A DNA stretch of 64,000 nt, from the NCBI GenBank assembly GCA_964413645.1, contig CAYPSA010000001.1, forward strand, positions 72,389-136,388. The letters run 5' to 3'. Shown one piece after another: positions 5,903-50,684 of the stretch. Below the pieces are notes generated by a model. It searched no databases and was not told the origin of the DNA. It saw only the letters and a list, made by a program, of their open reading frames with translations. A program made the translations under genes and the position numbers. Within the stretch, counting starts at the first letter, position 1. Each line of letters opens with the position of its first letter. The DNA is from an uncultured Gammaproteobacteria bacterium. GTDB taxonomy: Bacteria; Patescibacteriota; Microgenomatia; UBA1406; HO2-37-13b.

Positions 5903-6000
5903 GTCATCCTGAGAGAGCACTGTCATTCTGAGCGCAGCGAAGAATCTAGGTGTGAATAGATCGGAGATTCTTCATCCCACTTTGCGGGATTCAGAATGAC
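5903..6000. repeat. Family A hairpin repeats: truncated 5' arm, one plus-strand unit and one inverted unit
   Basis: gtcatcctgagagagca / gtcATTCTGAgcgcagcGAAGAATctaggtgtg / inverted agattcttcatcccactttgcgggattcagaatgac. Confidence 0.9.
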
Positions 6001-8033: not shown

Positions 8034-8034
8034 T

Positions 8035-9243: not shown

Positions 9244-9271
9244 CAGTGCCTGTTCAACCTCTTAGGTTGCC
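9227..9271. repeat. Twin 15-nt palindrome repeat (family B), copy 2
   Basis: Palindromes CAACCTCTTAGGTTG at 9228-9242 and 9255-9269 with CAGTGC linker; the first supplies the sufS C-terminus NLLG and TGA. Confidence 0.9.
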
Positions 9272-9330
9272 ACCTTTGTCATTCTGAGCGGTACCTTTGT
9301 CATTCTGAGCGGAGCGAAGAATCTCCGTAT
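9272..9330 (+). repeat. Family A: 21-bp tandem duplication of the left end followed by a complete unit
   Basis: acctttgtcattctgagcggt / acctttgtcATTCTGAgcggagcGAAGAATctccgtat. Confidence 0.9.
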
Positions 9331-15805: not shown

Positions 15806-16010
15806 CCCTGAGCTTGTCGAAGGGTCATCCTGAGCGACCCAGAGCATACGCGAGGGGAGTCGAAGGATCCCCGCTATCTGTCATTCTGAGCGCTTTGCCT
15901 GCCGCAGGTAGGTAGCGAAGAATCCCAATTGTGTCGTCGTACTTACGGCGCGAGATATCTGATCCGCCAGCTGGCGGAGAGACCATTTGACCTGCCTGCC
16001 GGCAGGCAGG
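15804..16010 (+). repeat. Repeat hotspot: three family A units with free-standing inner palindromes
   Basis: Units at 15804-15826, 15824-15870 and 15880-15925; hairpin gaTCCGCCagctGGCGGAgaga at 15961-15982; palindrome CCTGCCTGCCGGCAGGCAGG at 15991-16010. Confidence 0.9.
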
Positions 16011-16076
16011 GACTGCTACGCGGGCTCACTATGGTTGAGAATCACGATATCGAGCGGAGTATAAATCTTGAGGAGC

Positions 16077-19027: not shown

Positions 19028-19041
19028 CCTTTTTCTTGCGG

Positions 19042-19047
19042 TATAAT
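19042..19047 (+). promoter_or_regulatory. -10 box for lysK
   Basis: TATAAT 6 nt before ATG 19054; within the shared 15-mer GGTATAATACTCCTA. Confidence 0.6.
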
Positions 19048-19053
19048 ACTCCT

Positions 19054-20640
19054 ATGTTCTGGGCTGATCAATTAATACAAAACCTTGATAAAAAGTCTCA
19101 TCATCGTGTTGATGACATGAAAACTCCTTCAGGGCATGCTCATGCTGGGTCGTTACGCGCCATTGCAACACATGGCATTGTGTATGAAGCTATGAAAAAA
19201 GCAGGCTATGACGTTGATTTTACGTATGTAGTAAACGACATGGATCCAATGGATGGACTTCCCGTATATTTAGCTGAAGAAGAATACTCTCAACATATGG
19301 GAAAACCGCTTTTTACCATTCCTGCTCCCGATAAAAAATCTGAAAGTTTTGCTCATCAGTTTGCACACGAATATATAGGCGCATTTAATCACATTGGATT
19401 TACGCCAGAAATCTTGTGGTCTCACGAGTTGTATCAAAGTGGAGTCATGGATACGTATATTCGTCAGGCGCTTGATGGTGTTAAAAAAATCCGAGAAATT
19501 TATAAAAAAGTTGCTGATCAAAATAAACCAGAAGGTTGGTATCCGTTCCAGGTAATTTGTCCGCAATGCGGCAAAGTTGGGTCAAGTTTGGTAACTGATT
19601 GGGATGGAACCCTGGTAACATACGAGTGCAAACCTAATTTGGTAAAGTGGGCAATTGGTTGCGGTGCTGCTGGAACTATTTCTCCGTTTGGAGGAACCGG
19701 TAAACTCATGTGGAAAGTAGACTGGGCTGCGCATTGGGCTCACATTGGTGTAACTGTCGAAGGCGCAGGAAAAGATCATTTTAGCGCAGGAGGAAGTCGA
19801 TATGTTTCGGCTGCAGTGATGCAAGAGGTATTTGAAAAGGAACCTCCTTTTGGTTTTTTGCATGAATTTTTATTAATAGGCGGAGCTAAAATGTCATCTT
19901 CAAAAGGAAATGCAGTAACAGCTGCGGAATTGGTAACACTGCTCCCACCAGCCATCGGGAAATTCTTATTTGTTCGTACAGCGTATCAGCGGGCAATAAA
20001 TTTCGACCCAACGCTTTCCTCAACAATCCCTGATTTGTTCGATGAATATGATCGCTGTGCAAAAGCATTTTTTGAATCCGGAACAGAAACTGATATGGGA
20101 AGAATGTATGAAGCTGCTCAAATCGGGGAGCCCCCGTCCGCCAGCGGGCGGATCGGAAAAATGCACCTTCCTCGCTTCCGACAAATTGCCACGCTCATTC
20201 AAATGCCTTCGGTTGATGTAATTAAGTTCTTTGAAGCGGAAAAGGGGAGTGCACTTACTCAATCTGAACAGGATTTATTGCAAGAACGAACTCACTTTGC
20301 AAGAATTTGGTTGGAAAAGTATGCCGATGAAAAAGATACGTTTGCAATTTCTAAAACGCTTCCTTCGCGCGCGTCTGAATTAGACACCGATCAAAAGCAG
20401 TTCCTTAGCAGAGTGGCGACTGATCTGCTAAGCGAGCACTATTCCGACGGCGAAGCCTTGCAACAAGCAATATTTGAGCTTTCAAAGACTGTTGGACTGC
20501 CCCCAAAAAAGGCATTTCAGGCAATCTATTTGGTTCTCATAAACAAAGATCACGGACCAAAAGCTGGATGGCTATTATACGACGAAATGCAGAGCAATAA
20601 AGACTTCTTAATAGAACGATTTACGAGTGATATCGCCTAA
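19054..20640 (+). CDS. lysK: Lysyl-tRNA synthetase, class I
   Basis: FWADQL N-terminus, HIGH-like PSGHAHAGSLR, KMSSSKG (KMSKS); start moved from 19036 to ATG 19054 (TATAAT at 19042-19047). Confidence 0.88.
   Translation: MFWADQLIQNLDKKSHHRVDDMKTPSGHAHAGSLRAIATHGIVYEAMKKAGYDVDFTYVVNDMDPMDGLPVYLAEEEYSQHMGKPLFTIPAPDKKSESFAHQFAHEYIGAFNHIGFTPEILWSHELYQSGVMDTYIRQALDGVKKIREIYKKVADQNKPEGWYPFQVICPQCGKVGSSLVTDWDGTLVTYECKPNLVKWAIGCGAAGTISPFGGTGKLMWKVDWAAHWAHIGVTVEGAGKDHFSAGGSRYVSAAVMQEVFEKEPPFGFLHEFLLIGGAKMSSSKGNAVTAAELVTLLPPAIGKFLFVRTAYQRAINFDPTLSSTIPDLFDEYDRCAKAFFESGTETDMGRMYEAAQIGEPPSASGRIGKMHLPRFRQIATLIQMPSVDVIKFFEAEKGSALTQSEQDLLQERTHFARIWLEKYADEKDTFAISKTLPSRASELDTDQKQFLSRVATDLLSEHYSDGEALQQAIFELSKTVGLPPKKAFQAIYLVLINKDHGPKAGWLLYDEMQSNKDFLIERFTSDIA
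20123..20155 (+). repeat. GC-rich palindromic patch inside lysK (free-standing inner-hairpin type)
   Basis: cggggagcccccgTCCGCCagcgGGCGGAtcgg; same CCGCC/GGCGG hairpin as 15961, 48231 and 50344. Confidence 0.6.
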
Positions 20641-20649
20641 GAGGTGGTG

Positions 20650-20655
20650 TATAAT
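20650..20655 (+). promoter_or_regulatory. -10 box for serS
   Basis: GGTGTATAAT; 6 nt before ATG 20662. Confidence 0.6.
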
Positions 20656-20661
20656 TACCTC

Positions 20662-21939
20662 ATGCTTTCTATTGATTTTATCCGCGCCAACAAACAGAAA
20701 GTCGAACTTTGTTCGAAGAATAAAAACCGCCCGGTTGATGTAGATGCATTACTAGCTCTTGATGACACCCGCCGAGAACTTATTGGGAAAGTTCAAAAAC
20801 TCCGTGAAGAAAGAAATTCCCTTGCAAGTGCAGGGTCCGACGAGAGCGCACGGGAGCGCGGTCGAGTAATTAAGGATGAACTTAAGGTATTTGAAACAAA
20901 GCTTACCGATGTCGAAACAAAACTTAATGACCTCCTCTTAACCGTTCCAAATATATACCTTGATGAGGTTCCGGTAGGTACCGACGAATCGGGAAACCAA
21001 GAAATTTCAAAATGGGGAACTATTCCAGAATTTGACTTTACTCCCCTGTCGCATATTGAACTAGGAGAGAAGTTGGATCTAATTGATCTTAAACGAGGAA
21101 CGAAAGTATCGGGTTTTCGTGGCTATTTTCTAAAAAACCAAGCTGCTCAATTGCAAATGGCGCTCACGTTGTATGTTCTGAACAAACTCGTTAACAAAGG
21201 ATATACCCCGCTTCTTGCCCCCGCAGTTGTAAAAAGCTTTACAATGTTTGGAAATGGACAATTTCCGTGGGGAAAAGATGAAGTGTATGCGTTAAATGAT
21301 GACGATGCGTATTTGGCTGGTACTGCAGAAGTTCCAGTAACTGCGTATTTTGCTAATGAAACATTTTCGGAAAGTGACTTGCCCAAGAAGTTCGTCGCAT
21401 TTTCATCGTGCTTTCGCAGGGAAGCTGGCTCATATGGAAAAGATACAAAAGGCTTATACCGAGTTCATGAATTTTTCAAAATTGAACAGGTCATTATTGC
21501 AAAAGCGGATATAGAAGAAGCTAAAAAAATGCATGAAGAACTCCAACGAAATTGTGAAGAAATTCTACAAGAATTAAACCTCCCTTACCATATTTTACTT
21601 ATGTGCACCGGCGACATGGGAGAACCTCAAATGAAAAAGTATGATACTGAAGTCTGGATGCCATCTCGAAACGGGTACGGTGAAACAATGTCAAATTCCA
21701 TAATGGGCGATTTCCAAACACGACGTCTCAATATTAAATATAAAGATGCCCAAGGCAATATGCATTTCACCTATTCTCTAAACAATACTGCAATTGCATT
21801 TCCACGAATTCTGATTCCATTATTAGAAAATAACCAACAAAAAGACGGTTCAATTAAAGTTCCAGAAGTCCTTGTAAAATATACCGGCTTTGAAGTTATA
21901 TCTCCCCGTCATGCTGAGCGAAGCGAAGCATCTCAGTAA
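20662..21939 (+). CDS. serS: Seryl-tRNA synthetase
   Basis: Coiled-coil N-terminus, CFRREAGSYGKDTKGLYRVHEFFKIEQ motif 2; start moved from 20644 to ATG 20662; C-terminal RHAERSEASQ is repeat-derived. Confidence 0.93.
   Translation: MLSIDFIRANKQKVELCSKNKNRPVDVDALLALDDTRRELIGKVQKLREERNSLASAGSDESARERGRVIKDELKVFETKLTDVETKLNDLLLTVPNIYLDEVPVGTDESGNQEISKWGTIPEFDFTPLSHIELGEKLDLIDLKRGTKVSGFRGYFLKNQAAQLQMALTLYVLNKLVNKGYTPLLAPAVVKSFTMFGNGQFPWGKDEVYALNDDDAYLAGTAEVPVTAYFANETFSESDLPKKFVAFSSCFRREAGSYGKDTKGLYRVHEFFKIEQVIIAKADIEEAKKMHEELQRNCEEILQELNLPYHILLMCTGDMGEPQMKKYDTEVWMPSRNGYGETMSNSIMGDFQTRRLNIKYKDAQGNMHFTYSLNNTAIAFPRILIPLLENNQQKDGSIKVPEVLVKYTGFEVISPRHAERSEASQ
21908..21935 (+). repeat. Family A unit forming the serS 3' end
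   Basis: gtcATGCTGAgcgaagcGAAGCATctc; read in the alternative open frame as RHAERSEASQ-stop. Confidence 0.85.
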
Positions 21940-21943
21940 TATT

Positions 21944-24796
21944 ATGTTTAATCCATTCAAATCATTTTTCGACTTTAACAAAAAAGAAATTGATCGACTT
22001 GCAAAGCGAGTCGACGAGATTAATAAACTCGAAGATTCAGTGCGATCTTTAAAAGACGCTGATTTTGCAAAGGAAACAGTAAGGCTTCAAGAACAAATCA
22101 AATCAGGAACATCACTTGATGAGATTTTGCCATACTCTTTTGCACTCGTTCGCGAAGCCGCCAGAAGAGTGCTGGGAACACGCCACTATGATGTGCAACT
22201 TATGGCTGGAATTGCTCTTCATGAAGGTACCGTTGCCGAGCAAAAAACAGGAGAGGGAAAAACGTTATCTGCTACTTCGCCGCTCTATTTAAATGCTTTA
22301 ACTGGAAAAGGAGTTCATTTGGTTACTGTAAACGATTATTTGGCACGGCGTGATGCCGGATGGATGGGGCAGTTGTTTAGTTTCTTAGGTCTTTCTGTTT
22401 CTGCAATTATTTCTGAGCAGTCATTTTTATATGATTCTTCTTTTATCGATTCCCAAGCAACCGATCATCGACTAATTCATTTGCGACCCGTTTCGCGAAA
22501 AGAAGCATATGATGCTGACATAACCTACGGTATTAATTCAGAATTTGGATTCGACTATTTGCGCGACAACATGGCAAACGAAATGACAGGATTGGTACAA
22601 CGAGGATTTCATTACGCAATTATCGACGAGGTTGATTCTGTTTTAATTGACGAAGCTCGAACACCGCATATTATTTCCGCAGCGTATGATAAAGATGTTT
22701 CAAAGTATTATGATTACGCAACCATTGTTTCCAAATTAAAACCGAGCGATTTTACCATCGATGAAAAACAGCGAACCGCTCATTTAACAGAAGCAGGAAT
22801 TGCGACCATCGAAGGAATTTTGAAAGTCGAAAATGTGTACGAGAAAGATTTTGACACAGTATTTCATGTAGAAGCAGCACTTAAAGCCCGAACACTATTT
22901 ACGAAAGATAAAGATTACATCGTAAAAGATGGCGAAGTTATTATAGTCGATGAATTTACTGGTCGACTTTTGTATGGTCGCCGATTTTCTGAAGGATTAC
23001 ATCAGGCAATTGAAGCAAAGGAGCGGGTAGATATTAAACAAGAATCTCGAACGCTTGCCACCGTTTCATTACAAAACTATTTTAGAATGTATGAAAAACT
23101 CGGGGGCATGACTGGAACTGCAGCAACAGAAGCAGAAGAATTTTCAAAGATTTATAAACTTAATGTTATTATTTTCCCAACACATAATAAGGCGCAAAGA
23201 ATAGATCATGCAGATTTGATTTATAAAACCGAACTTGGAAAATTTAACGCAGTTGTTGCGGATGTTGCCGCGCAACACAAAACAGGTCGCCCAGTTTTAA
23301 TTGGAACCACTTCAATCCAAAAGAATGAGCTACTTTCTCAATTACTTAAAAAGAATGGTGTTCCACATACTCTATTGAATGCTAAAAACCATTTAAAAGA
23401 AGCGCAAATTATCTCATCCGCAGGTGAGCGAGGAGCAGTAACTGTTGCAACCAACATGGCTGGTCGAGGAGTCGATATTGTTCTGGGTGGAGAAGCTCCG
23501 AATAAGTATGAACGTCCAGTTGATAACGACGGTGTCATCCTGAGCTCCGCCGCGGGCGGAAGTGAGGGATCCTCGTCATCAAAAAAACAAGTTAAAGAAT
23601 CCGAAAAATACGAAAAGAAGATGAATGAATGGAGAAAGAAACATGATGAAGTTCTTGCACTTGGAGGTTTGTATGTTATCGGAACCGAACGACACGAATC
23701 TCGACGTATCGATAACCAGCTCCGAGGACGATCAGGTCGACAAGGTGACGCCGGAGAAACGCGTTTCTTTGTTTCACTCGAAGACGATTTGATGAGAATA
23801 TTTGGTGGTGAGCAAGTTGCAAAACTCATGAACTTTTTCAATATTCCTGAAGATCAACCATTAGAACATAAAATGGTATCACGAGCGCTCGAACAATCGC
23901 AGGTAAAAGTAGAAGGATTTAACTTTGACATGCGAAAACACTTGGTTGAATACGATGATGTCCTGAATAAACAACGAGAAGTTATTTATAGACTCCGTAA
24001 TCAAATCTTACGATCTGAAAATAAAGAAATTGACAATATCGCGACAAGTCTCTTTGAAGAAGAGATTCAAACGCTGACTAATATGTATGTCTTCCTCGAG
24101 GAAGATGTGATTGAATTTGAAAAACTAGCGCTTGAATTTTCACAAATAATTGGTGGCGATCCAAAGAAATTACAGAGCGAACTTGAGAAATTAGATAAAC
24201 CAGAAATTGCGCAGTTGCTTTCCAAGAAATTGCAAACAAGTTATAAAAAAAAGGAAAAAGACTTGGGAACCGACGTATGGAAGCAGGCAGTTCAAATTGT
24301 GTACCTGTCAACTATTGATAAATATTGGACTGAACATCTAACAGCAATCGACGACTTGCGCGATGGTATTCGTTTCCGCGGATACGCGCAACTTGATCCG
24401 TTAGTAGAGTATAAGAATGAAGCGTACACCATGTTTGAAAAATTACTTTCTGATATTAATTACGATGTATCTCGTCGATTACTTCATATTGAAGTAACGC
24501 AAAATATTCCACAGGTCCAAACACTTGATGAAAGCAAAATAAAATTGTCATCGGCTTCAGCAATCGATCCATTCGCAGCTCAAACCGATCCTCATGCCGG
24601 ACATAATCATGACGATCATGATCATGTCCACGATCATTCAGGTCATGATCATAGCCATGCAGGTCATACCCATACACATACCGTGAGTGCTTCTGCGCAA
24701 TCTACCAAAATCGGTCGTAATGATCCTTGCCCATGTGGAAGTGGATTGAAATACAAGAAGTGCGGCCTCATTAATGCTCCAGAACACAAGAACTAA
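21944..24796 (+). CDS. secA: Preprotein translocase ATPase SecA
   Basis: KTGEGKT, IIDEVDSVLIDEARTP, TNMAGRGVDI, GTERHESRRIDNQLRGRSGRQGD, C-terminal CPCGSGLKYKKC zinc motif; ATG 21944 (MFNPFKSF) preferred to ORF-track 21890, which overlaps serS. Confidence 0.95.
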   Translation: MFNPFKSFFDFNKKEIDRLAKRVDEINKLEDSVRSLKDADFAKETVRLQEQIKSGTSLDEILPYSFALVREAARRVLGTRHYDVQLMAGIALHEGTVAEQKTGEGKTLSATSPLYLNALTGKGVHLVTVNDYLARRDAGWMGQLFSFLGLSVSAIISEQSFLYDSSFIDSQATDHRLIHLRPVSRKEAYDADITYGINSEFGFDYLRDNMANEMTGLVQRGFHYAIIDEVDSVLIDEARTPHIISAAYDKDVSKYYDYATIVSKLKPSDFTIDEKQRTAHLTEAGIATIEGILKVENVYEKDFDTVFHVEAALKARTLFTKDKDYIVKDGEVIIVDEFTGRLLYGRRFSEGLHQAIEAKERVDIKQESRTLATVSLQNYFRMYEKLGGMTGTAATEAEEFSKIYKLNVIIFPTHNKAQRIDHADLIYKTELGKFNAVVADVAAQHKTGRPVLIGTTSIQKNELLSQLLKKNGVPHTLLNAKNHLKEAQIISSAGERGAVTVATNMAGRGVDIVLGGEAPNKYERPVDNDGVILSSAAGGSEGSSSSKKQVKESEKYEKKMNEWRKKHDEVLALGGLYVIGTERHESRRIDNQLRGRSGRQGDAGETRFFVSLEDDLMRIFGGEQVAKLMNFFNIPEDQPLEHKMVSRALEQSQVKVEGFNFDMRKHLVEYDDVLNKQREVIYRLRNQILRSENKEIDNIATSLFEEEIQTLTNMYVFLEEDVIEFEKLALEFSQIIGGDPKKLQSELEKLDKPEIAQLLSKKLQTSYKKKEKDLGTDVWKQAVQIVYLSTIDKYWTEHLTAIDDLRDGIRFRGYAQLDPLVEYKNEAYTMFEKLLSDINYDVSRRLLHIEVTQNIPQVQTLDESKIKLSSASAIDPFAAQTDPHAGHNHDDHDHVHDHSGHDHSHAGHTHTHTVSASAQSTKIGRNDPCPCGSGLKYKKCGLINAPEHKN
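23534..23572 (+). repeat. Family A unit with inner CCGCC/GGCGG hairpin, in frame inside secA
   Basis: gtcATCCTGAgcTCCGCCgcgGGCGGAagtGAGGGATcc; translated VILSSAAGGSEGS. Confidence 0.85.
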
Positions 24797-28612: not shown

Positions 28613-28699
28613 GTCATTCTGAGAGAGCGTAGCGATCGAAGAATCTCGGTGTGGATAACACCTAGATCCTTCATCCCGCTTTGCGGGATTCAGGATGAC
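28613..28699. repeat. Family A full-size element (two inverted units) between eno and the exonuclease gene
   Basis: gtcATTCTGAgagagcgtagcgatcGAAGAATctcggtgtgg...gatccttcatcccgctttgcgggattcaggatgac. Confidence 0.9.
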
Positions 28700-31544: not shown

Positions 31545-31594
31545 GTCATTCTGAGTGAAGTCGAGGAGTCATTCTGAGCGGAGCGAAGAATCTC
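31545..31594 (+). repeat. Two tandem family A units upstream of tsaC-tsaE
   Basis: gtcattctgagtgaagtcgaggagtc (degenerate, G.T pairs) and gtcATTCTGAgcggagcGAAGAATctc. Confidence 0.85.
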
Positions 31595-31602
31595 AATTAC
31601 TT

Positions 31603-32667
31603 ATGAAAATAATTTCAAAAAAAGATGGATCGCAAAAGGAGTTGATCGAAGAAATAAAAGCGGTCATTCTGGCCGGTGGACTTGTCGTATTACCATCGGA
31701 TACCGTGTATGGTTTATGCGTTGATGCGCGATCAAAATCTGCGGTAGAAAAGCTAATCTCATTTAAACGACGACCTGCCGGAAAGCCGATTTCAGTATTT
31801 GTCGGGAGCGTAGATCGAGCTCATAAGTATATTGCTCTCAATAAGAGTCAAAACGCTCTCTTAGATCAACTGGCTCCCGGACCATATACATTCGTTTTAC
31901 CCTCAAAAGGAGCGTTGCGCCCGGAACTTGAATCTGAACAAGGAAACTTAGGTATTCGTATTCCTGATAATGCATTTATTAATGAGCTCATTGATTCTCT
32001 CGATTTTCCCATAACCGCAACATCTGCAAACCTTGCCGGTGCGCATCCTCATTACTCTGTCGAGTCACTTTTGCAGAGTCTTTCAGATAAAAAGAAGCAA
32101 GAAATTGACCTCATTGTCGATGCAGGTAAACTTCCATATAACAAGCCCTCTACTGTTCTTGACCTAAGTCAAGAAACCGTTGCGGTTTTACGTGCTGGTG
32201 ATGATCAAATAACAGAGACACACACCTCTACATCCGCTACACAGACTGCTGCAATTGGGAAAAATATTCTCACTCAATTAAAGGAAAAAGCTTTCGACAA
32301 GCCTGCCATTATTATTCTCCAAGGAGAGCTTGGGGCAGGTAAAACGACACTCATTAAGGCAATCGGAGAAGAACTCGGAATAACCAACATTGTCTCTCCT
32401 ACCTATGTCGTGTGTTACGAGTATCCTACGACTGATGAGCATTTCAAGCTCTTTCATCACTGTGATTTTTACAATATAAAAGAAGGCGATGAGCTTAATT
32501 TTCTAGGAATTGACCAAATGCTCAAACCCAACACGCTCGTTGCAATAGAATGGGGCGAAAAAAGCGGACCAATTTTTGACATGCTAACACAAAAAGCACA
32601 AGTCGTTGTTGTCTCGATGAGTTATGTAACGCAAGATTGCCGAAAAATCGACATTAATTACCTATAA
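31603..32667 (+). CDS. Fusion of TsaC/YrdC (threonylcarbamoyl-AMP synthase) and TsaE (t6A ATPase)
   Basis: N-terminal LPSDTVYGLCVDA, KRRPAGKPISVFV, TSANLAG; C-terminal LQGELGAGKTTLIK, SPTYVV, HCDFYNI; ATG 31603 preferred to 31555, which reads through repeat units. Confidence 0.8.
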   Translation: MKIISKKDGSQKELIEEIKAVILAGGLVVLPSDTVYGLCVDARSKSAVEKLISFKRRPAGKPISVFVGSVDRAHKYIALNKSQNALLDQLAPGPYTFVLPSKGALRPELESEQGNLGIRIPDNAFINELIDSLDFPITATSANLAGAHPHYSVESLLQSLSDKKKQEIDLIVDAGKLPYNKPSTVLDLSQETVAVLRAGDDQITETHTSTSATQTAAIGKNILTQLKEKAFDKPAIIILQGELGAGKTTLIKAIGEELGITNIVSPTYVVCYEYPTTDEHFKLFHHCDFYNIKEGDELNFLGIDQMLKPNTLVAIEWGEKSGPIFDMLTQKAQVVVVSMSYVTQDCRKIDINYL

Positions 32668-40660: not shown

Positions 40661-40758
40661 GTCATTCTGAGCGCCCTGCCTGCCGGCAGGCAGGTAGCGA
40701 AGAATCTCGGTGTGATTAACACCCAGATTCTTCAGTCGCTTTGCTCCTTAAGAGTGAC
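40661..40758. repeat. Family A full-size element with a 20-nt palindrome plugged into the core
   Basis: gtcATTCTGAgcgcCCTGCCTGCCGGCAGGCAGGtagcGAAGAATctcggtgtg...agattcttcagtcgctttgctccttaagagtgac. Confidence 0.9.
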
Positions 40759-41853
40759 ATTATGTAAGTAAATCTGCTGTGTTTTTTTTGTCATATTTTC
40801 AAATGAAAATCTCTGGGTATCCAACTTAGGTCTGGTAAGTTTTTCACGAGCGGCTTGTGTAAGCGTTTTCTGAATAGATTCCTGACTGTATGGATCAAAT
40901 CGAAGAGTACGTTCATGTAAAATCTCATCGAACACAGAAATTTTTGAAGCAACTACCGGACATCCAAAATATTGTGATTCTACAATGGGTAAGCCAAAGC
41001 CTTCGGTAAGCGAAGGTTGCACTAATGCATGCGCATTTTTAAAGAGTGCAATTTTTTTCTGCTGAGAAATATTGAATAGTTGCAAAACCCTTTCAGTAAG
41101 ATTAAGTTGCTCTATAAGTTTGGTAATCGAATTCGAGAAAAAGTCTTTAGGACCGACTAAAATCAATTTCATAGAAATATCGGTCTTTGCAAAAGCTCGA
41201 AGTAGTTTTTCTACGTTTTTATGAGGGTATGAATTACCGATATATAAGAAATATGGAGATTTGTTCAAAAACTTATGTATCGTTGTCAGTATTGAGTCAT
41301 CGGACTTCATTTTTTGAAGTTCAAAGTCTATGCCTTCGTTAGTGACAATGACTTTATCTTTATATTGTTTCCCGAAATAGTGCAATATCGAACTCCGAAC
41401 TGCCTCAGATGGAACAATTACTTGTTTGCTTTTTTTTATACCTCGCTCTAAAACATGCTGATACACCGTGTGCTTTACATGAAATAATGGTGTTGGAAGT
41501 GTCGTTGCTTGACCTGTCTTGAAAAGTAATGGTGTAAGATCGTGAATGGTAATAACAAATGGTCTTAAATATAAGTAAGGAAAACTAAAATAGGTAAAAT
41601 GCATTAAGTCTAGTTTGTCGGCATATAGTACTCGTAAAAAATGGGTCTGTTCAGATGCTGAGTGCCATCTAAAAGGCGCAGGTCGTTTAACCAAATGAGC
41701 CTTGTTCGGGATTCTATCAAAATCTTGCGGATATGCATAAACAATATACTCAATATCATTCGATGCTGTATCCAAATAATGCAACAAGTTACGAATATAT
41801 ACTCCAACCCCTGTTTGATTAATAAGACGCGCATCTATTCCTATTCTTTTCAT
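40732..41853 (-). CDS. Glycosyltransferase family 4
   Basis: EGFGLPIVESQYFGCPVVAS motif; C-terminal VTLKEQSD and stop encoded by a repeat arm. Confidence 0.85.
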   Translation of the reverse strand: MKRIGIDARLINQTGVGVYIRNLLHYLDTASNDIEYIVYAYPQDFDRIPNKAHLVKRPAPFRWHSASEQTHFLRVLYADKLDLMHFTYFSFPYLYLRPFVITIHDLTPLLFKTGQATTLPTPLFHVKHTVYQHVLERGIKKSKQVIVPSEAVRSSILHYFGKQYKDKVIVTNEGIDFELQKMKSDDSILTTIHKFLNKSPYFLYIGNSYPHKNVEKLLRAFAKTDISMKLILVGPKDFFSNSITKLIEQLNLTERVLQLFNISQQKKIALFKNAHALVQPSLTEGFGLPIVESQYFGCPVVASKISVFDEILHERTLRFDPYSQESIQKTLTQAAREKLTRPKLDTQRFSFENMTKKTQQIYLHNVTLKEQSD

Positions 41854-42761
41854 CGTGGTAGTTTTGATTTTAAATTAATGAGCTTATGAACTATTTTGTT
41901 TTGGAGTGGAGAGTTTTTTTTGGCAAAGTGCTTGTTATAAAAAATTCCCATTGCTTCAAAAAAATGATTGCCAGTTTTCTTTTGAATGCGTATTTTGTCT
42001 GTCTGTAAACCACTGCGATGTTTTAAATGTATGACGGTAAATAACGGATAATAGACAATCGAATATCCCAATTCCTTAATGCGAAAAGATAGATCTATAT
42101 CCTCACCGTACATGAAATAATCTTCATCAAAACCGTGTATTTTTTTTAATATGTCTAACCGCGACAAATAAAAAGCACCAGTTGGGGAATCAATTTCATG
42201 AATGTTCTTAAGGTCTAAATGTGTTAAATGATAGCCTCCAAAAAATCTATTTAATATAGGAATAGGAGTAAAGAATTTTTCTAATTTTGAAAAATAAGTA
42301 AAGGCGTTCCATAAACTTGGAAAGCCTCGGTGGCTTGCAGGGTCAATATTTCCATCTGGAAGTTCAACACGCACGGTCAATACTCCAATCTTTTCGTGCT
42401 CATCCATGTAGTGAATAAGATCAGCAAAATTCACATCCTGTACGTACACATCGGAGTTTAAATAGAGCACATACTTTCCGGCGGCATGTTCAAGACCCCT
42501 GTTATTCCCTTTTGAAAATCCTACGTTTTCATGTAAAAATAGATACTTAACGTCGATGTTTTTATTTTCCGATCGACATTCTTTGATCATTTCTACAGAT
42601 CCATCAGTAGAGTTGTTATCGACCAAAATGATTTCTGTCGAAATCGATGGAGATTGTTGTAACGAATTTTCTAGATACACAAAACACTGGCGTGTTACAT
42701 CGAGGGTATTATACGAGACTATAATGATTGACAAATCTTTCATAACATTTATCGAAACCAC
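41850..42761 (-). CDS. Glycosyltransferase family 2
   Basis: IIIVSYNT, VDNNSTDGS, LYLNSD motifs. Confidence 0.85.
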   Translation of the reverse strand: MVSINVMKDLSIIIVSYNTLDVTRQCFVYLENSLQQSPSISTEIILVDNNSTDGSVEMIKECRSENKNIDVKYLFLHENVGFSKGNNRGLEHAAGKYVLYLNSDVYVQDVNFADLIHYMDEHEKIGVLTVRVELPDGNIDPASHRGFPSLWNAFTYFSKLEKFFTPIPILNRFFGGYHLTHLDLKNIHEIDSPTGAFYLSRLDILKKIHGFDEDYFMYGEDIDLSFRIKELGYSIVYYPLFTVIHLKHRSGLQTDKIRIQKKTGNHFFEAMGIFYNKHFAKKNSPLQNKIVHKLINLKSKLPR

Positions 42762-43354
42762 GCGGCACGGCCTAGTTTGTAGTGGAGATTTTTTTCTTCT
42801 CGTTGTCCAATTTCTTTTGCAGGAACTCCTCCAACAATTGCATATGGAGGCACATCTTTCGTAACTACAGCACCTGCTCCTACAATTGCTCCAGTTCCAA
42901 TGGTAACTCCAGGGAGGATAATTGCACGGGGCCCAATAAATACGTAGTCTTGGATTGTCACGGGTGCAAGCACTATTCCTTCAGCTGCAGCAAAATGCTC
43001 ACTATTAATATTATGTTCGCTGTTGTAAATCATTACTTCGGAAGCAATATCGACATGATCTCCAATGGTTAGTTTCGCTCGACCATCAAGAACTGCGCTT
43101 TCACCAATAATCGTATCTTTACCGATTTTGATTTGGGTTGGATCATAAAAGCGGGTATGCATATGAATGCTTGATCCTTTGCCAATTGACACGCCTAGAA
43201 AGCGATACACTAAGCGTCTGAAATGATGAAGGGGAACACATCCTGCCATATGTGCAAAAAAGACTATAATTTCCAGCAGAATTGTCCGAACGCGTAATAC
43301 AGCTTTCATAGCAATTTCATCTGCTGTTAATGTTCGACCTGTTTTATCTTTCAT
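42749..43354 (-). CDS. Hexapeptide-repeat O-acetyltransferase (WcaF/LacA-like)
   Basis: Left-handed beta-helix repeats IGKDTIIGESAVLDG, IGDHVDIAS, IGPRAIILPGVTIGTGAIVGAGAVV. Confidence 0.8.
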   Translation of the reverse strand: MKDKTGRTLTADEIAMKAVLRVRTILLEIIVFFAHMAGCVPLHHFRRLVYRFLGVSIGKGSSIHMHTRFYDPTQIKIGKDTIIGESAVLDGRAKLTIGDHVDIASEVMIYNSEHNINSEHFAAAEGIVLAPVTIQDYVFIGPRAIILPGVTIGTGAIVGAGAVVTKDVPPYAIVGGVPAKEIGQREEKNLHYKLGRAAWFR

Positions 43355-43360
43355 ATTTTT

Positions 43361-43406
43361 GTCAACCTCTTAGGTTGCCAGTGCGTAGTCAACCTCTTAG
43401 GTTGCC
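43361..43406. repeat. Twin 15-nt palindrome repeat (family B), copy 3
   Basis: Palindromes CAACCTCTTAGGTTG at 43363-43377 and 43390-43404, CAGTGC linker, 27-bp phasing. Confidence 0.9.
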
Positions 43407-44489
43407 CACTTCCTTTAAAACGTTCAAGGTCTCATCCGCACATTTTTTCCAGCTGAATTCCTTGACTCTCTGTAATCCTTTGGCCTTCAAGGAAGCACGT
43501 AACTCATTGTTTGAGAGTACTTCATCAATTTTCTTTGCCATATCAATTGTATCATTTGGATCAAAATATACACAAGCATCACCGCAAACTTCAGGCAGGC
43601 TTGAATTGTTAGAAACAATTGCGGGGCAACCCGCACTCATTGCTTCCAGAGGAGGATTACCGAAGCCTTCGTACAGCGAAGGGAGAACATATGCTTGGGC
43701 ATGCTTGTACAGCGCGTTTTTTTCACCGTCAGTAACATATCCAGTAAACACTACGTCATCTTGGAGATTTAACTGCGTAACTCGCACATAAATTTCATCA
43801 TACAACCAGCCTTTTTTCCCAACTAGATAAAGCTTTAGGTCCGCATGTTCCTTTTTAAGGCTACTAAAGGCTTCTATGAGTTTTACCACATTTTTTCGAG
43901 GTTGCAGAGTTCCTACGTATAACAGGTATGGAGAGGTTGGCAACTTAACCTCTTCAGGAGTTTCAACTGAGCTTGTTATGTTAAACCCATTATGAATAAC
44001 TTCAATTTTTTGCTCAGGAGTTTCATAGAATTTAATAATATCCTTTTTCGTGTTTTCAGATACCGCAATAACTTTTGAAGAGCGATTTAGAGCATAACTC
44101 GTCCAGTTTTTAAGCTTATACAAATCTTTTTTTAAAAACTCTTCGGGATAATAAAAATAAGCCACGTCATGGATAGTTACAACCGTCTTAACAGAGCTAA
44201 ATCGAGGTATATAATGCGCAGGGCAAAACAAAACATCGGGTTTTTTATGCGTTGCTAAATATGCCGGAAAAAACACCTGACTCCAGGCAACTGAACCGGG
44301 AATTACTATGTATTTAAAATATTCATTTTGACTAGGAAGGTCAGAAAGAGGGGATTTTCGTAGGTAAATTACAAATTGTATTTTCTCACCCGCGCTCTTA
44401 TAAAACTCTCTTAGCAAATTTAGAGTATACAACGATACTCCCACTCGCTCGTTTACATTTGCTTCATTTCCATCTATTCCAATAATCAT
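43389..44489 (-). CDS. Glycosyltransferase family 4
   Basis: EGFGNPPLEAMSAGCPAIVSN motif; C-terminal NLRG and stop encoded by the twin palindrome. Confidence 0.85.
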   Translation of the reverse strand: MIIGIDGNEANVNERVGVSLYTLNLLREFYKSAGEKIQFVIYLRKSPLSDLPSQNEYFKYIVIPGSVAWSQVFFPAYLATHKKPDVLFCPAHYIPRFSSVKTVVTIHDVAYFYYPEEFLKKDLYKLKNWTSYALNRSSKVIAVSENTKKDIIKFYETPEQKIEVIHNGFNITSSVETPEEVKLPTSPYLLYVGTLQPRKNVVKLIEAFSSLKKEHADLKLYLVGKKGWLYDEIYVRVTQLNLQDDVVFTGYVTDGEKNALYKHAQAYVLPSLYEGFGNPPLEAMSAGCPAIVSNNSSLPEVCGDACVYFDPNDTIDMAKKIDEVLSNNELRASLKAKGLQRVKEFSWKKCADETLNVLKEVGNLRG

Positions 44490-46755: not shown

Positions 46756-48212
46756 AGCTTGAAGATCGTGGCTTTATTACTTTCAAACACAACCGAAAAA
46801 TCAGGTACTTTTTTGACTTCGACAATAACGTCGGGTTTATCGGTTACAAAATAATCAGCTCCTCGTTTGCGCAAGTCATGCAAATCTTCTGTGACTGCCG
46901 GATATCCTTTTCTATTTGAAACATATAGCAAAGTAGTGTCGCCTACAGTATCGGTTACAATAACCGCATCCTCTTCTGTTATTAAATTAATCGCCTGAGC
47001 GGTACTTACTAAACTATCCGAGATGTTGTAGTAATCTTTAACTCGTTCATATGAAAACATCCAGGATCCAGCAAAAATGATGATAATCGATGCCAGGAGC
47101 ATCGTTTGATTCGCTACTTTTTTACCCATTTGTACAAAAAGTGCAACTCCCAAGCCTACAAAAATCGCTACGGCCGGTAAAATTACGACTTGGTAATAAT
47201 CATGTTGCACATTTCCTCCTTGAAAAGTGAATAGATATAGCAGAGCACTTAATCCAATCGAGTAAAACAAAGCGCTTTTGAGTGGTTTCTTAATGATTCC
47301 CGCCATAAAGAACACAACGGTATATCCACCCAAGAGGAGTATTAAGATTCTTTCAAAGAAAATCCATCTGAAAAATGCCGGTCTAAAAAATACATTTTGC
47401 AATCCTCCTGCGGTGTTAACACCAAAAAATAGCCAATCACTTGCGGGAATTCCTTGTGGAAATTGGGTAATAAATAATCTCCACGCTATAAGTGGCGCAA
47501 CTGCTCCAAGAAAATATACATACATTGGAATATGTGAAACTACGCTATATCCATATCTCTTAAATAGTATAAACACGATTGGCAACAGGTAAAAAATAAC
47601 GGTAGGCTTTGTTAATAGTCCGCATATCACGAATAACATCGAGAGCGCAAGGAGGGCGCCTGCGTTTACTTTTGATTTTGTTGTGTGTTTTGCATATTGA
47701 TATGCAAAAAATATTCCCATGAACATAAATGAAACCGCTGCAGTATCGGGCAGCACAACTCGTGAGTAGTAAACGAAAAAGGGGAATACAGCAAATGTGA
47801 ATGCTGCAGCAATTGCTGCCACCTGACTTTCTTCGTAATACAGTAAGTAATATAGTATGCTTATGGTGATTAGTGAGAATAGAATTGTCACTAGACGACC
47901 ATATTGTTCTACGGGCATTATGGGAAGCACCGAGTGCAGAGTAGCAATAATACTCTGGTAAATTGGGAATTCAACATATCGTAACCCCTCTGGATTGTAT
48001 TGCCCCGTTTGTACATTTGATAAATCATCGTATCGGGGCTTAAGCAAGTCTATTCCATTTCTTGAGTAGTTACGGGCAACGGCAGCGGTGTCAGCTTGTC
48101 GCCATGAATGCCAGTCAGCCAAAGGAGATGTAAATTTATATAGTCGCAATACGAGTGCAAGCAGTAGTATCGCTCCTAATATAAGCGTATTTTTTTTTGA
48201 AAGAAAGTTCAT
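46752..48212 (-). CDS. GT-C fold membrane glycosyltransferase (PMT/ArnT-like, GT39/83-type)
   Basis: About 12 hydrophobic segments; first-loop motif WHSWRQADTAAVARNY; soluble C-terminal domain; ATG 48212 preferred to TTG 48239, which lies in a repeat. Confidence 0.7.
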   Translation of the reverse strand: MNFLSKKNTLILGAILLLALVLRLYKFTSPLADWHSWRQADTAAVARNYSRNGIDLLKPRYDDLSNVQTGQYNPEGLRYVEFPIYQSIIATLHSVLPIMPVEQYGRLVTILFSLITISILYYLLYYEESQVAAIAAAFTFAVFPFFVYYSRVVLPDTAAVSFMFMGIFFAYQYAKHTTKSKVNAGALLALSMLFVICGLLTKPTVIFYLLPIVFILFKRYGYSVVSHIPMYVYFLGAVAPLIAWRLFITQFPQGIPASDWLFFGVNTAGGLQNVFFRPAFFRWIFFERILILLLGGYTVVFFMAGIIKKPLKSALFYSIGLSALLYLFTFQGGNVQHDYYQVVILPAVAIFVGLGVALFVQMGKKVANQTMLLASIIIIFAGSWMFSYERVKDYYNISDSLVSTAQAINLITEEDAVIVTDTVGDTTLLYVSNRKGYPAVTEDLHDLRKRGADYFVTDKPDVIVEVKKVPDFSVVFESNKATIFKL

Positions 48213-48220
48213 AATAAATT

Positions 48221-48277
48221 CAACCTCTTTGTCCGCCAACTGGCGGAGACTGTGCCTACTTAAGCCCGCTGGTTGTC
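48221..48277 (+). repeat. Composite: half family-B palindrome, CCGCC/GGCGG hairpin and family-C motif
   Basis: caacctcttt-gTCCGCCaactGGCGGAgac-tgtgcctacttaagcccgctggttgtc. Confidence 0.75.
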
Positions 48278-49747
48278 CAGTCGGCCAATAAAGATCCCCA
48301 TGGTATACCAGAATATATACGCAACTTTGGAAGCTTCAAACACATCGATGTACCCCGCATTAATGAGCAAACCTCCTATCCCAAACAGGAGCGCTTTAAA
48401 TATATATTGTTCATTTTTTTCAAGTTTAGTAAGGCCAAGACGCACGTAATTTCCCATTGAATAAATAAGGTATAAGAATAATCCAAATCCAAGTAATCCA
48501 AATTCACCGAGCCATCGTAGGTAATCGTTATCGGTTGATTCTGTAATCGACGACGGTCCGGTGCCTAATAGTGGGTTTTTAAGTAACGCATTAATTGCTC
48601 GAGGCCATTCGACTTGTAGGCGAGTTGCAAAAGATATATCGGTCGCTACTGCAGACACTTCCTTGTAGTTGGCCGAATTAGTTGCACCAGGCACATTTCC
48701 AAGTCCACTTTTAGTCGCTTCTTTTATTGCTTCATTTATTGATTGAGCCTTAATCGCAGCAGCGTCAGCCGATTGCTTTGCTTGTGGTTTTATTTGGATA
48801 TATGATGTTCCAGCAGGTAATTCCTTACTACTAATTCGCTGCGATACAACGACTTGGCCTGTTTGTTCATTAACTAAAATTTGTTTAATCTGAAATGTTT
48901 TAAGTAGTCGTTGTGTTAAGTCTTTTTGCGAATATGCGAGTATTAATGAAAGAGTCAGTACAAAAGCAAAATGTCGATATCTTCTTACATACAACAAAAA
49001 TAATGGGGTTGTAAATAAATAGGCCAAAAAAGATGATCTTGAAGCTGTAAGCATTAAAATAAATACACCAAGCATAAATATGACATAGAGCGAAACGTGC
49101 AAATATTTTTTCCCTTTTGTTGCCAAAAAAGTACCAAATATAATTGGGAGCGTAAGGACTAAGTATGCAGCCAAGTCATAGTGTCCGCCGAATGTTGAAG
49201 AAATTCGAGCTTCAGGAGTAAGAAATAAAATATGCCCTTTTGCAAATTCAGGGTTCATAGTAGAGACAGCGGGTAAATTAAAAAACCGTTGTCCTATTCC
49301 GTAGAAACCAACTAACGCAAAAGAAACAATCAAGCTGCCCAGAAGCCAATTAAAATGCTTTCGTGATCGTATTGCATTTGCAGCAATAAAAAACACGATC
49401 ATATATTCTACACGTCGCGCAGCGTGTAGAAGGGCCAAATTATGATACGGCAGTGTTTTTGTAATAAAAATTCCACTCGCTACAGCTAAAAATACAGCTC
49501 CCCAGAATAATACAATTGGTTTTGTAAATACTGGGTGCAAGCTCGCCTTCTTTCGAAGTAATTGAATTACAAAGACCGCAGCGATAAATGCAACATAAAA
49601 ATCTTCTAAGCGAATAGCGATGTATGTATACGTTACGAAATGAAAGGGGATTTTTGGGTATAGAGGAATAATAAAGACAAACGCAGTTAAGAGAATCGTG
49701 AGAATATTGTCGTCAATTGTTTTTAGTAATGCCGTAAGCTTGCGCAT
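48260..49747 (-). CDS. O-antigen ligase/polymerase-like (Wzy_C domain) membrane protein
   Basis: Polytopic; large loop; DNDYLRWLGEFGLLGFGLFLYLIY resembles the Wzy_C family motif; C-terminal DNQRA and stop are repeat-derived. Confidence 0.65.
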   Translation of the reverse strand: MRKLTALLKTIDDNILTILLTAFVFIIPLYPKIPFHFVTYTYIAIRLEDFYVAFIAAVFVIQLLRKKASLHPVFTKPIVLFWGAVFLAVASGIFITKTLPYHNLALLHAARRVEYMIVFFIAANAIRSRKHFNWLLGSLIVSFALVGFYGIGQRFFNLPAVSTMNPEFAKGHILFLTPEARISSTFGGHYDLAAYLVLTLPIIFGTFLATKGKKYLHVSLYVIFMLGVFILMLTASRSSFLAYLFTTPLFLLYVRRYRHFAFVLTLSLILAYSQKDLTQRLLKTFQIKQILVNEQTGQVVVSQRISSKELPAGTSYIQIKPQAKQSADAAAIKAQSINEAIKEATKSGLGNVPGATNSANYKEVSAVATDISFATRLQVEWPRAINALLKNPLLGTGPSSITESTDNDYLRWLGEFGLLGFGLFLYLIYSMGNYVRLGLTKLEKNEQYIFKALLFGIGGLLINAGYIDVFEASKVAYIFWYTMGIFIGRLDNQRA

Positions 49748-50684
49748 AGGTTTTTGATAGATAGCTACTATTAATTATCTTTCCAATTGTAATACTAACA
49801 AGTGCCTTAAATTGTAGCATAATCCGTAACACATGTAATTGCAAGCGGCTATTATGTTTTTTGTAAAAATATAAAAAGCCTTTAAATACCTGAATTATCG
49901 GTTCACTGCGCCCATTGCTTGAAGCACTTCCCAAGTGAATTATACGTGAATTTGGATAAAATCCTGTCAGAAGATTATGTTTTTTTGCTCTGTATAGCAA
50001 GTCAATTTCTTCCATATACATAAATATGGCCTCATCAAATCCACCCAACATTTCAAAATCACTTTTTGCACACATAAAACAAGCTCCCGAAACCCAATCT
50101 ACTTGTTTGGTAAACCGTGGTGAAAAGCGGGTAAGACCATAATAATCACCTCGTAAAAATAGGGCAGCAAACACTACGGGTAGTGTATAAAAGTGTCCGG
50201 CCGAAGCTTGTGGCGTTTTCCCGTCTTTTTCTAAAAGCTTAGGACCGACGAAAGAGTATATATTTAAGTCGCTGGTAAAAAAGGAATACAAGGAGCTTAT
50301 ACTGTCAACCCCGTCAGTCTCAGCGATACCTTTGTCATTCCGATCCGCCATCTGGCGGAGAGGAATCTCAGCTCTGGCACCCAGGATCTCCGTATCCGAA
50401 TTCAAAAATAACAAATGTTTCCCCATTGCCTGTTTCACCGCCGCATTATTTCCCTTCCCAAATCCCAAGTTTTCTTTACTTTCTACTATCTTAATTGAGA
50501 GTGAAGAGTGCTGTTTTTTAAACTCGTGCAGCATAGCAATCGAATTATCAGTGGAGTCATTATCTAAGACAACAATTTCATATTTAAATGAAGCTTCCTC
50601 TAAGCCTAAAACAATCGTTTGCAGGCACTTTTTGGTGATTTGAGCAGTATTGTATGAAACTATGATGATCGATAGATCTACCAT
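49713..50684 (-). CDS. Glycosyltransferase family 2 (carries a 69-72 nt in-frame repeat insertion)
   Basis: MVDLSIIIVSYNT, VLDNDSTDNS, LFLNSD; ATG 50684 used (TGgTATACT box 6 nt upstream) instead of ORF-track 50885. Confidence 0.8.
   Translation of the reverse strand: MVDLSIIIVSYNTAQITKKCLQTIVLGLEEASFKYEIVVLDNDSTDNSIAMLHEFKKQHSSLSIKIVESKENLGFGKGNNAAVKQAMGKHLLFLNSDTEILGARAEIPLRQMADRNDKGIAETDGVDSISSLYSFFTSDLNIYSFVGPKLLEKDGKTPQASAGHFYTLPVVFAALFLRGDYYGLTRFSPRFTKQVDWVSGACFMCAKSDFEMLGGFDEAIFMYMEEIDLLYRAKKHNLLTGFYPNSRIIHLGSASSNGRSEPIIQVFKGFLYFYKKHNSRLQLHVLRIMLQFKALVSITIGKIINSSYLSKTYAQAYGITKNN
50326..50394 (+). repeat. Family A unit (antisense to the gene) inserted in frame in the GT2 gene
   Basis: acctttgtcATTCCGAtccgccatctggcggaGAGGAATctc...atctccgtat; same left and right ends as the intergenic copy at 9293-9330. 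Confidence 0.85.

Follow-up and report, generated by a model that had tools for sequence, protein, structure and literature searches.

REP (repetitive extragenic palindromic) sequences tagged with CGTC or TGTC have been described as short palindromes that carry this unpaired tetranucleotide at one end, with a stem of 8-9 bp opening with an A-T and then a T-A pair, a loop of 4-5 nt and a 3' tail which is mostly CCA (Di Nocera, De Gregorio and Rocco 2013, PMC3733652). In the passages of that paper considered here, these elements are mostly intergenic and located near the ends of open reading frames (ORFs), often form inverted dimers and have no known dedicated transposase; they sometimes lie wholly within ORFs, adding 20-30 amino acids, and RPE-4 and RPE-6 of Rickettsia are identified as CGTC REPs. 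For the Rickettsia palindromic elements (RPEs), in-frame insertion in many genes has been reported (Ogata et al. 2000, 2002, as summarised in PMC10969869). The present analysis concerns a 72-nt insertion in a family 2 glycosyltransferase (GT2) gene of a Microgenomates-group bacterium of the Candidate Phyla Radiation (CPR), located in a 64-kb stretch of a 230-kb contig; this whole stretch is called the window, and all coordinates are based on it. It is proposed, with a probability of about 0.8, that the insertion is a stack of REP-like, YGTC-tagged units which accumulated in frame in the GT2 loop between the strand of the DxD-like Asp97 and the next helix.

The units in the window resemble CGTC/TGTC REPs, as portrayed in that source, in being palindromic, 20-40 bp long, tagged, dispersed, near ORF ends, arranged as inverted dimers and occasionally intragenic, and in having a stem of nine positions with A-T and T-A as first pairs. 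They differ in their conserved tandem G.A, in the GNA triloop of the canonical class and in a tail reading CT(C) rather than CCA, and here they are hosted by a CPR bacterium; CPR is not among the lineages that those passages of PMC3733652 name. They fit within the (C/T)GTC-tagged REP superfamily, an assignment based on the described architecture of that superfamily. With RPEs, as outlined in the summary cited, the likeness is one of behaviour only: palindromes stand in frame in unrelated, often essential genes (here GT2, SufS, SecA and the lysyl-tRNA synthetase LysRS), at fold-compatible positions and, in the present case, presumably translated. On the other hand, host and sequences are different, RPE-1 measures ~100-150 bp while the units here measure 27-35 nt and stack or nest, and here intermediate states of one site are seen in related strains. 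Inverted hairpin doublets with a short spacer (28613-28699, 40661-40736; many loci) and presence or absence between relatives recall REPINs, the REP doublets linked to RAYT (REP-associated tyrosine transposase) genes (Bertels and Rainey 2011, PMC3116915), but the tag is YGTC, not the GTAG given in the parts of that paper drawn on here, in every copy examined, and the GT2 insert does not have the form of an inverted doublet. In the window, where no search aimed at RAYT was made, no such gene was noticed. The SDR repeats of heterocystous cyanobacteria (21-27 nt) are reportedly tiny hairpin repeats that nest in each other and are rarely found in genes, and to our knowledge no transposase is known for them; their likeness to the present units may serve as a lead. 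The type of event is already known, as REPs and RPEs in genes, and is seen here at several stages among related strains.

The host gene and the landmarks needed to place the insertion are as follows.

49713-50684, minus strand: gene for the GT2 (GT-A fold) glycosyltransferase, 323 residues, an ORF 100% identical to database protein P0001
50394-50402, minus strand: codons N95-S96-D97, the DxD-equivalent motif, all three invariant in 120 homologues
50385-50396, minus strand: native codons D97-T98-E99-I100, plus strand GATCTCCGTATC; insert-free orthologues also read DTEI(L)
50313-50384, minus strand: whole insertion of 72 nt, residues 101-124 (LGARAEIPLRQMADRNDKGIAETD), from protein and DNA alignments; placement ambiguous by a few nt
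41850-42761, minus strand: paralogous GT2 of the same cluster, 303 residues, 31% identical, without an insert at the site

In the database 2880 homologues were found; they come from Microgenomates/Roizmanbacteria (CPR) genomes and, with few exceptions, measure ~296-305 residues. Alignments were made with 22 sequences and with 120 (the closest of the 2880). In both alignments residues at the insert site occur only in P0001-P0004, the insert being missing in ~116 of the 120 closest homologues. P0005-P0008 (73-77% identical) and all more distant aligned orthologues, of ~299 residues, read LNSDTEILD-DAISSLY, against LNSDTEIL-GARAEIPLRQMADRNDKGIAETDG-VDSISSLY in P0001, which exceeds the insert-free orthologues by exactly 24 residues or 72 nt. 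A sequence-only reading of this DNA had proposed 24 extra residues just past the catalytic NSD motif, in a protein running LNSDTEI, insert, motif; the orthologues bear out the excess, translation of the ORF gives the predicted order, and the insert does begin four residues beyond Asp97, occupying residues 101-124. Insert lengths at this site are graded among homologues (0, 7, 14 and 24 residues), with seven-residue inserts SSAQNDG or RSAQNDG at the same point in P0002 and P0004 and a 14-residue insert, KQVQDDGQLPQNDG, in P0003. The insert has a GC content of 56.9%, compared with 36.6% for the rest of the GT2 gene, and encodes the peptides AEIPLR and NDKGIAETDGVDSISSLYSFFTSDLNIYSFVGPK, as well as NDKGIAETDGVDSISSLY.

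Other elements of that reading had to be revised. It had used the paralogue to delimit the insertion, and this was dropped: BLASTP (31% identity) placed no gap there, opened gaps elsewhere and paired the insert to native residues, so the delimitation was taken from the orthologues instead. Its observation that excision restores exactly 25 residues is not robust, since MAFFT sets the paralogue one residue off at the insert. Of the interval 50313-50394, the left edge holds, while the right edge lies 10 nt too far, within native codons, the insert ending at 50384. What had been taken as the right terminus of a repeat, ATCTCCGTAT, consists of native D-T-E-I codons, over which the insert-free locus L006 reads GACACAGAGATT, although its identity to the flank of the 9299-9330 copy is real; D97-T-E-I is kept in close orthologues, the wider-set consensus being LNSDIxVL. 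The supposed left terminus, ACCTTTGTCATTC, is internal to the insert, which runs left to GTCAGTCTCAGCG at 50313-50325.

Two parts of the insert recur elsewhere in the window. Positions 50313-50340 match 9278-9305 with 3 mismatches in 28, and 50341-50362 match 15960-15981 with 2 in 22; neither match was obtained in 100 shuffles. The relatives concerned are:

9278-9330, plus strand: intergenic relative composed of a 5' arm, GTACCTTT, a complete canonical unit and CCGTAT, with the architecture of the left part of the GT2 insert
15960-15981, plus strand: intergenic CCGCC/GGCGG hairpin module TGATCCGCCAGCTGGCGGAGAG, 20/22 identical to 50341-50362, within the module cluster 15816-16011

These matches beyond chance and the GC contrast indicate that the insert DNA derives from dispersed repeats. 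The module cluster at 15816-16011 is itself intergenic: over ~200 nt between convergent genes (15011-15805, plus strand; 16077-17057, minus strand), hairpin modules of at least five kinds are piled up.

For the history of the site, the syntenic loci of P0002-P0005 were retrieved and the genes aligned, L004 and the window being 84% identical over 20 kb. The states of the site, with the length gained relative to the insert-free form, are listed here.

L006 (P0005), +0 nt: sense strand GAG ATT TTA GAT GAC GCA; GAGATTTTAGATGAC
L004/L005 (P0004), +21 nt: sense strand GAG ATT CTT CGC TCC GCT CAG AAT GAC GGG GTT GAC
L001 (P0002), +21 nt: copy of the L004 unit, slightly diverged
L002/L003 (P0003), +42 nt: two units
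Window (P0001), +72 nt: nested composite

The 21-nt gain in L004/L005 and L001, together with flanking native bases, makes a canonical 27-nt hairpin unit whose antisense reading is EILRSAQND. In L004 the reverse complement of the site, CGTCATTCTGAGCGGAGCGAAGAATCTCCGTATC, is an exact canonical unit, identical over 32 nt to the intergenic copy at 9299-9330 of the window. Within the insertion of the window the following parts can be told apart.

50313-50325, plus strand: 5' arm of the outer (older) unit, GTCAGTCTCAGCG, the C at 50312 before it giving a CGTC tag; L004/L005 hold an intact unit at the same site
50326-50376, plus strand: 51-nt window-specific insertion nested in the outer-unit loop, ATACCTTTGTCATTCCGATCCGCCATCTGGCGGAGAGGAATCTCAGCTCTG, from the three-way alignment of L004, L006 and window
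50326-50333, plus strand: linker ATACCTTT; its counterpart in the intergenic double copy is GTACCTTT, at 9291-9298
50334-50368, plus strand: intact inner 35-nt hairpin unit GTCATTCCGATCCGCCATCTGGCGGAGAGGAATCT, supported by DNA fold, an identical 35-mer elsewhere and covariation
50369-50384, plus strand: CAGCTCTGGCACCCAG, made up of 8 nt of the window-specific block and then the 3'-arm remnant of the outer unit, from alignments with L004

The 5' arm of the outer unit is a decayed form of the canonical GTCATTCTGAGCG, its antisense reading being A-E-T-D in the window and A-Q-N-D in L004; the 3'-arm remnant is strongly diverged from its L004 counterpart, GAGCGAAG. The 51-nt block, present only in the window in the alignment with L004 and L006, comprises the 8-nt linker, the 35-nt unit of a second class and 8 nt, CAGCTCTG. 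The inner unit is laid out as a GTC tag, a stem ATTCC/GGAAT, a tandem G.A/A.G mismatch, a stem TCCGCC/GGCGGA and a loop ATCT. Because the L004 unit is present without the 51 nt, and the 51-nt block sits inside the loop of that unit, the insert is, as judged from these alignments, a nested composite of at least two events and not one unit. The sequence-only reading had seen in it the antisense reading of a single family A unit; the repeat origin, the antisense orientation and the frame stand, and the single unit does not, in view of this nesting. A 7-nt direct repeat, TCTCAGC, can be read at 50318-50324 and 50366-50372.

The alignments show that, in an insert-free site reading ...DTEIL-DDAISS, a common ancestor of the window strain, L004 and L001 gained 21 nt, making one canonical unit, and that the window lineage gained another 51 nt in the loop of that unit, including a complete second-class 35-nt unit. 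A third lineage, represented by L002, holds two units (42 nt) in a tract obtained by recombination. Along the gene L002 is 95-100% identical to the insert-free L006, except for ~150 nt around the insert, where identity is 76-82% to L006, 90-93% to L004 and 83-91% to the window, a pattern which indicates that homologous recombination brought the tract with the insert into a gene of L002 that is otherwise of the insert-free type. The GT2 gene of the window is likewise a mosaic when compared with L001, its 3' half being 95-98% identical and its 5' half 61-78%. For the 21-nt gain, a template-switch (fold-back) origin was considered and rejected, in that the new arm departs from the reverse complement of the native sequence beside it and the product matches the family consensus exactly; this favours copying of another unit over de novo formation of a palindrome. 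On the repeat strand the insert-free site reads GCGTCATCTAAAATCTCTGTGTC, in which CGTCAT...AATCTCnGTnTC resembles both ends of a unit, and this single example hints at targeting of YGTC or of unit-like microhomology.

At least 15 GC-rich hairpin units or modules are found in the window. The canonical unit can be written (C/T)GTC-ATTCTGAGC-GNA-GCGAAGAAT-CT, its nine-position stem ATTCTGAGC/GCGAAGAAT consisting of seven Watson-Crick pairs and the tandem G.A. The loop is the 3-nt GNA in the canonical unit and has 4 nt in the 35-nt class, and other copies hold a whole extra palindrome there (CCTGCCTGCCGGCAGGCAGG or GATCCGCC-NNNN-GGCGGAG). GTC is invariant in 11 aligned units and preceded by C or T in 8/11, the GT2 outer unit being tagged CGTC and the inner one TGTC; the tail CT is usually followed by C and then varies, in the window often reading AGGTGT or CCGTAT. 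Support for the canonical hairpin rests on covariation, because energy does not set the 26-mer apart. Among the 11 units 100% of the cells are paired and 4/7 pairs show compensatory double changes, a result equalled by 0/500 shuffles and collapsing when the partners are slid; A5-T25 is invariant, and T6-A24 is present in 10/11 units with one compensated change. With nearest-neighbour parameters neither the canonical 26-nt unit (z = 0.03) nor the 47-nt composite at 33792 exceeds its shuffles in stability, and the fold of the 101-nt region is unremarkable (z = -1.4 as RNA, -1.2 as DNA). The 35-nt inner unit, folded as DNA, reaches -9.5 kcal/mol (z = -3.4, 0/200 shuffles as stable), and the 47-nt unit at 40661 also stands out, with a z of about -3.

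The 35-nt class was found in at least 120 metagenome stretches. Among the matches listed, the inner 35-mer of GT2 is identical at an unrelated metagenomic locus (L236), and the 48 distinct 35-mers all begin their stem with A-T and then T-A, show C-G/T-A covariation at two stem positions and retain the tandem G.A/A.G mismatch in 43-46 cases; T precedes GTC in 98/126 matches of the scan for this class. The exact 26-mer GTCATTCTGAGCGNAGCGAAGAATCT occurs in the window at 5922-5947, 8461-8486, 9299-9324 and 31568-31593, and in at least 120 genome stretches (L007-L126) across very many phyla. Among the matches listed these include Nitrospirota, Chloroflexota, Acidobacteriota, Bacteroidota, Planctomycetota, Verrucomicrobiota, Firmicutes, Cyanobacteria, Saccharimonadales, Proteobacteria and others, with cultured Pedobacter and Mucilaginibacter (Bacteroidota) and Calothrix PCC 7716 (Cyanobacteria) as hosts; T stands before GTC in 114/134 of these listed copies, there is no further conservation in the flanks, and a second unit, in inverted orientation, often lies at a distance of 20-45 nt. 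A scan of the whole window against Rfam at the gathering threshold returned three tRNAs only and no family for the repeats. Full-text literature searches with the unit sequence, its reverse complement and variants matched unrelated primers only and found no paper naming the unit, and searches combining CPR or Patescibacteria with REP, palindromic or in-frame insertion found nothing relevant.

Presence or absence of repeats between strains extends beyond the GT2 site, clusters being present or absent at orthologous intergenic sites of L004 and L006 near 40.65, 48.24 and 59.2 kb. REPIN-like inverted doublets lie at 28613-28699 and 40661-40736, and also at 5922-6000, each made of a unit, a spacer hairpin (GGTGTG..CACC) and a reversed unit, with ends GTCA...TGAC; the 40.7-kb doublet is shared by the window and L004 and not by L006. 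At the intergenic doublets (e.g. 40661-40736) the flanks of the empty site are too diverged to score for a target-site duplication. Comparison of the empty (L006) and filled (L004, window) GT2 sites revealed no element bounded by terminal inverted repeats (TIRs) and no clean target-site duplication.

Units of the same kind occupy other genes. In SufS (8020-9243, plus strand) a canonical unit at 8461-8492 encodes EDVILSVAKNLGV, in the segment EDVILSVAKNLGVRTK; it takes up a loop which B. subtilis SufS forms from native sequence, and makes this loop slightly shorter. Orthologues P0121-P0128 conserve the unit, in part as variants or expansions: it is kept in P0121, P0122 and P0126-P0128, where variants of the VILSATKDL type would still allow the stem to pair, and is expanded in P0124 and P0125; the SufS copy looks like an old resident and not a fresh insertion. 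In SecA (about 21944-24796, plus strand) GTCATCCTGAGCTCCGCCGCGGGCGGAAGTGAGGGAT at 23534-23570 encodes (D)GVILSSAAGGSEG(S) in the linker of nucleotide-binding domain 2 (NBD2), within a segment, DGVILSSAAGGSEGS, of a linker absent from T. maritima SecA, and the HMMER alignment breaks over 53 residues. In the class-I LysRS (19036-20640, plus strand) a CCGCC/GGCGG module at 20132-20157 encodes GEPPSASGRIGK, with ~6 extra residues at the module relative to P. horikoshii LysRS (1IRX). Units at 7992-8033, 11529-11570, 21908-21939 and 40732-40760 provide the last 9-15 residues and the stop codon of ORFs 7437-8033, 9804-11570, 20644-21939 and 40732-41853 (e.g. ...EKSVILSVAKDLGVEN or ...NVTLKEQSD, each followed by the stop); the C-terminal extension at 40.7 kb is repeat-derived, because the insert-free strain L006 has no repeat there. 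The unit at 31568-31593 makes a spurious N-terminal extension of ORF 31555-32667. Among GT2 orthologues, the DNA of P0010 (L128) confirms two TGTC-tagged palindromes in other loops, ...TGTCATGCGAAGCGTGATCTCGCTTTGCGAGA... and TTGTCCTCCGATTCGGAGG, and in P0025, P0027 and P0107, also of CPR bacteria, other loops hold short inserts with peptides that seem to come from hairpins.

A second, unrelated repeat family was observed at 2143-2204, 9215-9276, 43350-43411 and 48208-48238, with the hairpin CAACCTCTTAGGTTG(A/C)CA; it contains a TTGACA hexamer and usually forms a tandem pair 27 nt apart beside gene ends. At 48.24 kb a CCGCC/GGCGG hairpin replaces one arm of a second-family hairpin, relative to L006. 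L004 also holds an extra gene of the Exo_endo_phos family (1892-2665, ~750 nt) between two Mur ligase genes, which is not there in the window (~57880) or in L006.

Regarding the enzyme, the host protein belongs to glycosyltransferase family 2 with a GT-A fold, as given by its Pfam domain, the invariant N95-S96-D97 and a Foldseek match, and its gene opens a glycan-synthesis cluster with Wzy_C, PMT_2, several GT4 genes, a hexapeptide transferase and the second GT2. Pfam assigns P0001 to PF00535/PF13641 (PF00535 at 65.5 bits, cut-off 23.3), its N-terminal GT2 domain match ending at residue 106, while the best match of the paralogue, PF13641, extends to residue 251. The AlphaFold2 model of P0001 (pLDDT 88.8, pTM 0.87) has a GT-A fold, and Foldseek retrieved RmlT (E-value 5e-13) and other GT-A enzymes, including GalNAc-transferases. 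In this model pLDDT falls below 50 only at residues 104-125, i.e. the insert, and at 254-258, the insert lying as coil between strand 98-100 and helix 128-136; its polar composition and its place in a modelled loop are compatible with a surface excursion that the enzyme tolerates. The length of the insert is divisible by three, the frame in which it is read has no stop codon, and all family-invariant residues are kept; dN/dS is 0.07-0.11 for every pair, insert-bearing pairs included. On the basis of the frame, the dN/dS values and the loop position in the model, the GT2 gene looks functional, intact and under constraint. The Logan assembly of SRR8893623 shows 0 mismatches over 1972 nt of the region.

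The insert would be transcribed and translated as a 24-residue, polar and probably disordered surface loop, which the enzyme presumably tolerates because the frame is kept, no stop codon lies in frame and the site is a loop. It may best be regarded as selfish or neutral passenger DNA and not as an adaptation. The opposite possibility, that repeat-derived sequence by the donor-binding DxD site was recruited as a lid or to alter the specificity for substrate or acceptor, under diversifying (e.g. phage-driven) selection, appears improbable: it would suit the four length states at one site among close strains, the patchwork of recombined tracts that makes up the locus (a typical trait of surface-polysaccharide loci), the position four residues past Asp97 and the purifying selection still acting on insert-bearing lineages, but the inserted DNA consists of generic dispersed units also found intergenically and in unrelated genes, the 7-, 14- and 24-residue versions share no conservation beyond the repeat-dictated sequence, the segment is modelled as coil with low confidence, and close relatives keep insert-free alleles. 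Even less credence can be given to a pseudogene, that is, to a recent inactivation of GT2 by repeat insertion beside the active site, in frame by chance. The length of the insert is a multiple of three without a stop codon, all invariant residues are kept, dN/dS is 0.07 against L004, at least three lineages whose genes are intact maintain a shorter insert at this position, and the essential SecA, SufS and LysRS genes of the window hold comparable units; these points outweigh the close vicinity of the catalytic Asp, the Pfam match that stops at residue 106 where that of the paralogue continues to 251, and the position of the 51-nt step on a terminal branch, which allows no measurement of selection.

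Short GC-rich repeats being a classic cause of misassembly, and the 72-nt form coming from a single sample, a chimeric join through the repeat during assembly or binning might have produced the 51-nt block; this is very unlikely, as the independent Logan assembly is identical over 1972 nt, the block is in frame and nested exactly in a unit found at the same site in assemblies of other samples, and the flanks are collinear with orthologues. Some genes of AT-rich genomes contain GC-rich hairpin inserts that are bypassed, as in Magnusiomyces mitochondria and T4 gene 60, and in GT2 a stable hairpin is flanked by 7-nt direct repeats whose spacing keeps the frame. That the hairpin promotes translational bypass from one GCUGAGA repeat to the other, 48 nt away, or that the insert is otherwise removed or skipped in expression, leaving a mature protein without most of it, nevertheless has a barely appreciable chance of being correct: the insert can be read in its open frame without any need for a bypass, it contains neither a stop codon nor another known take-off signal, and the other intragenic units of the window are also open in frame.

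Several points also weigh against an in-frame stack of accumulated units as proposed here. The 3' arm of the outer unit in the window is far more diverged than the 84% background identity, and the window allele shares GAGATCCTG with L002 and not with L004, which leaves the order and number of steps uncertain. The sole candidate for a duplication at the GT2 insert is the ambiguous 7-nt TCTCAGC repeat, and no transposase turned up in the window, whose ORFs were not scanned for HUH/Y1 transposases; with no transposase, TIRs or clear target-site duplication found, the mode of insertion is unproven. Low pLDDT in the insert would be expected anyway, only four alignment rows covering it. The 51-nt step comes from one sample only, in two assemblies probably built from the same reads, any selection on this step and its translation are presumptive, and selection could also account for a single hypervariable site in a surface-glycan gene.

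For the stack of tagged units, a plausible mode of spread is that units are copied from other genomic units by a mechanism recognising the tagged hairpin, candidates being a trans-acting enzyme of the single-stranded DNA (HUH/Y1-type) class or templated repair at short homologies, and that units within genes would then pass between strains by ordinary recombination. A wider and rather doubtful speculation is that YGTC-tagged units form one near-universal bacterial system (an identical 26-mer in more than 15 phyla, with the tandem G.A), still propagating in tiny CPR genomes without a dedicated transposase by hairpin- or microhomology-templated copying that lands by preference in existing units or unit-like proto-sites, the coding insertions being snapshots of an active, undescribed mechanism.

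The insertion of selfish DNA of the REP/RPE type in genes is extended by these observations to the Candidate Phyla Radiation, in whose very small genomes any insertion in essential genes (SecA, SufS, LysRS, glycosyltransferases of the cell envelope) is conspicuous. In practical terms, the units break Pfam matches and add spurious C- or N-terminal extensions to ORFs, and can thereby mislead the annotation of CPR genomes. The GT2 site provides a natural series of empty, one-unit, two-unit and nested 72-nt states together with recombinational transfer, and this series allows one to ask how tagged hairpin repeats enter and grow in coding sequence, and what amount of inserted loop can be tolerated near the active site of a GT-A enzyme.

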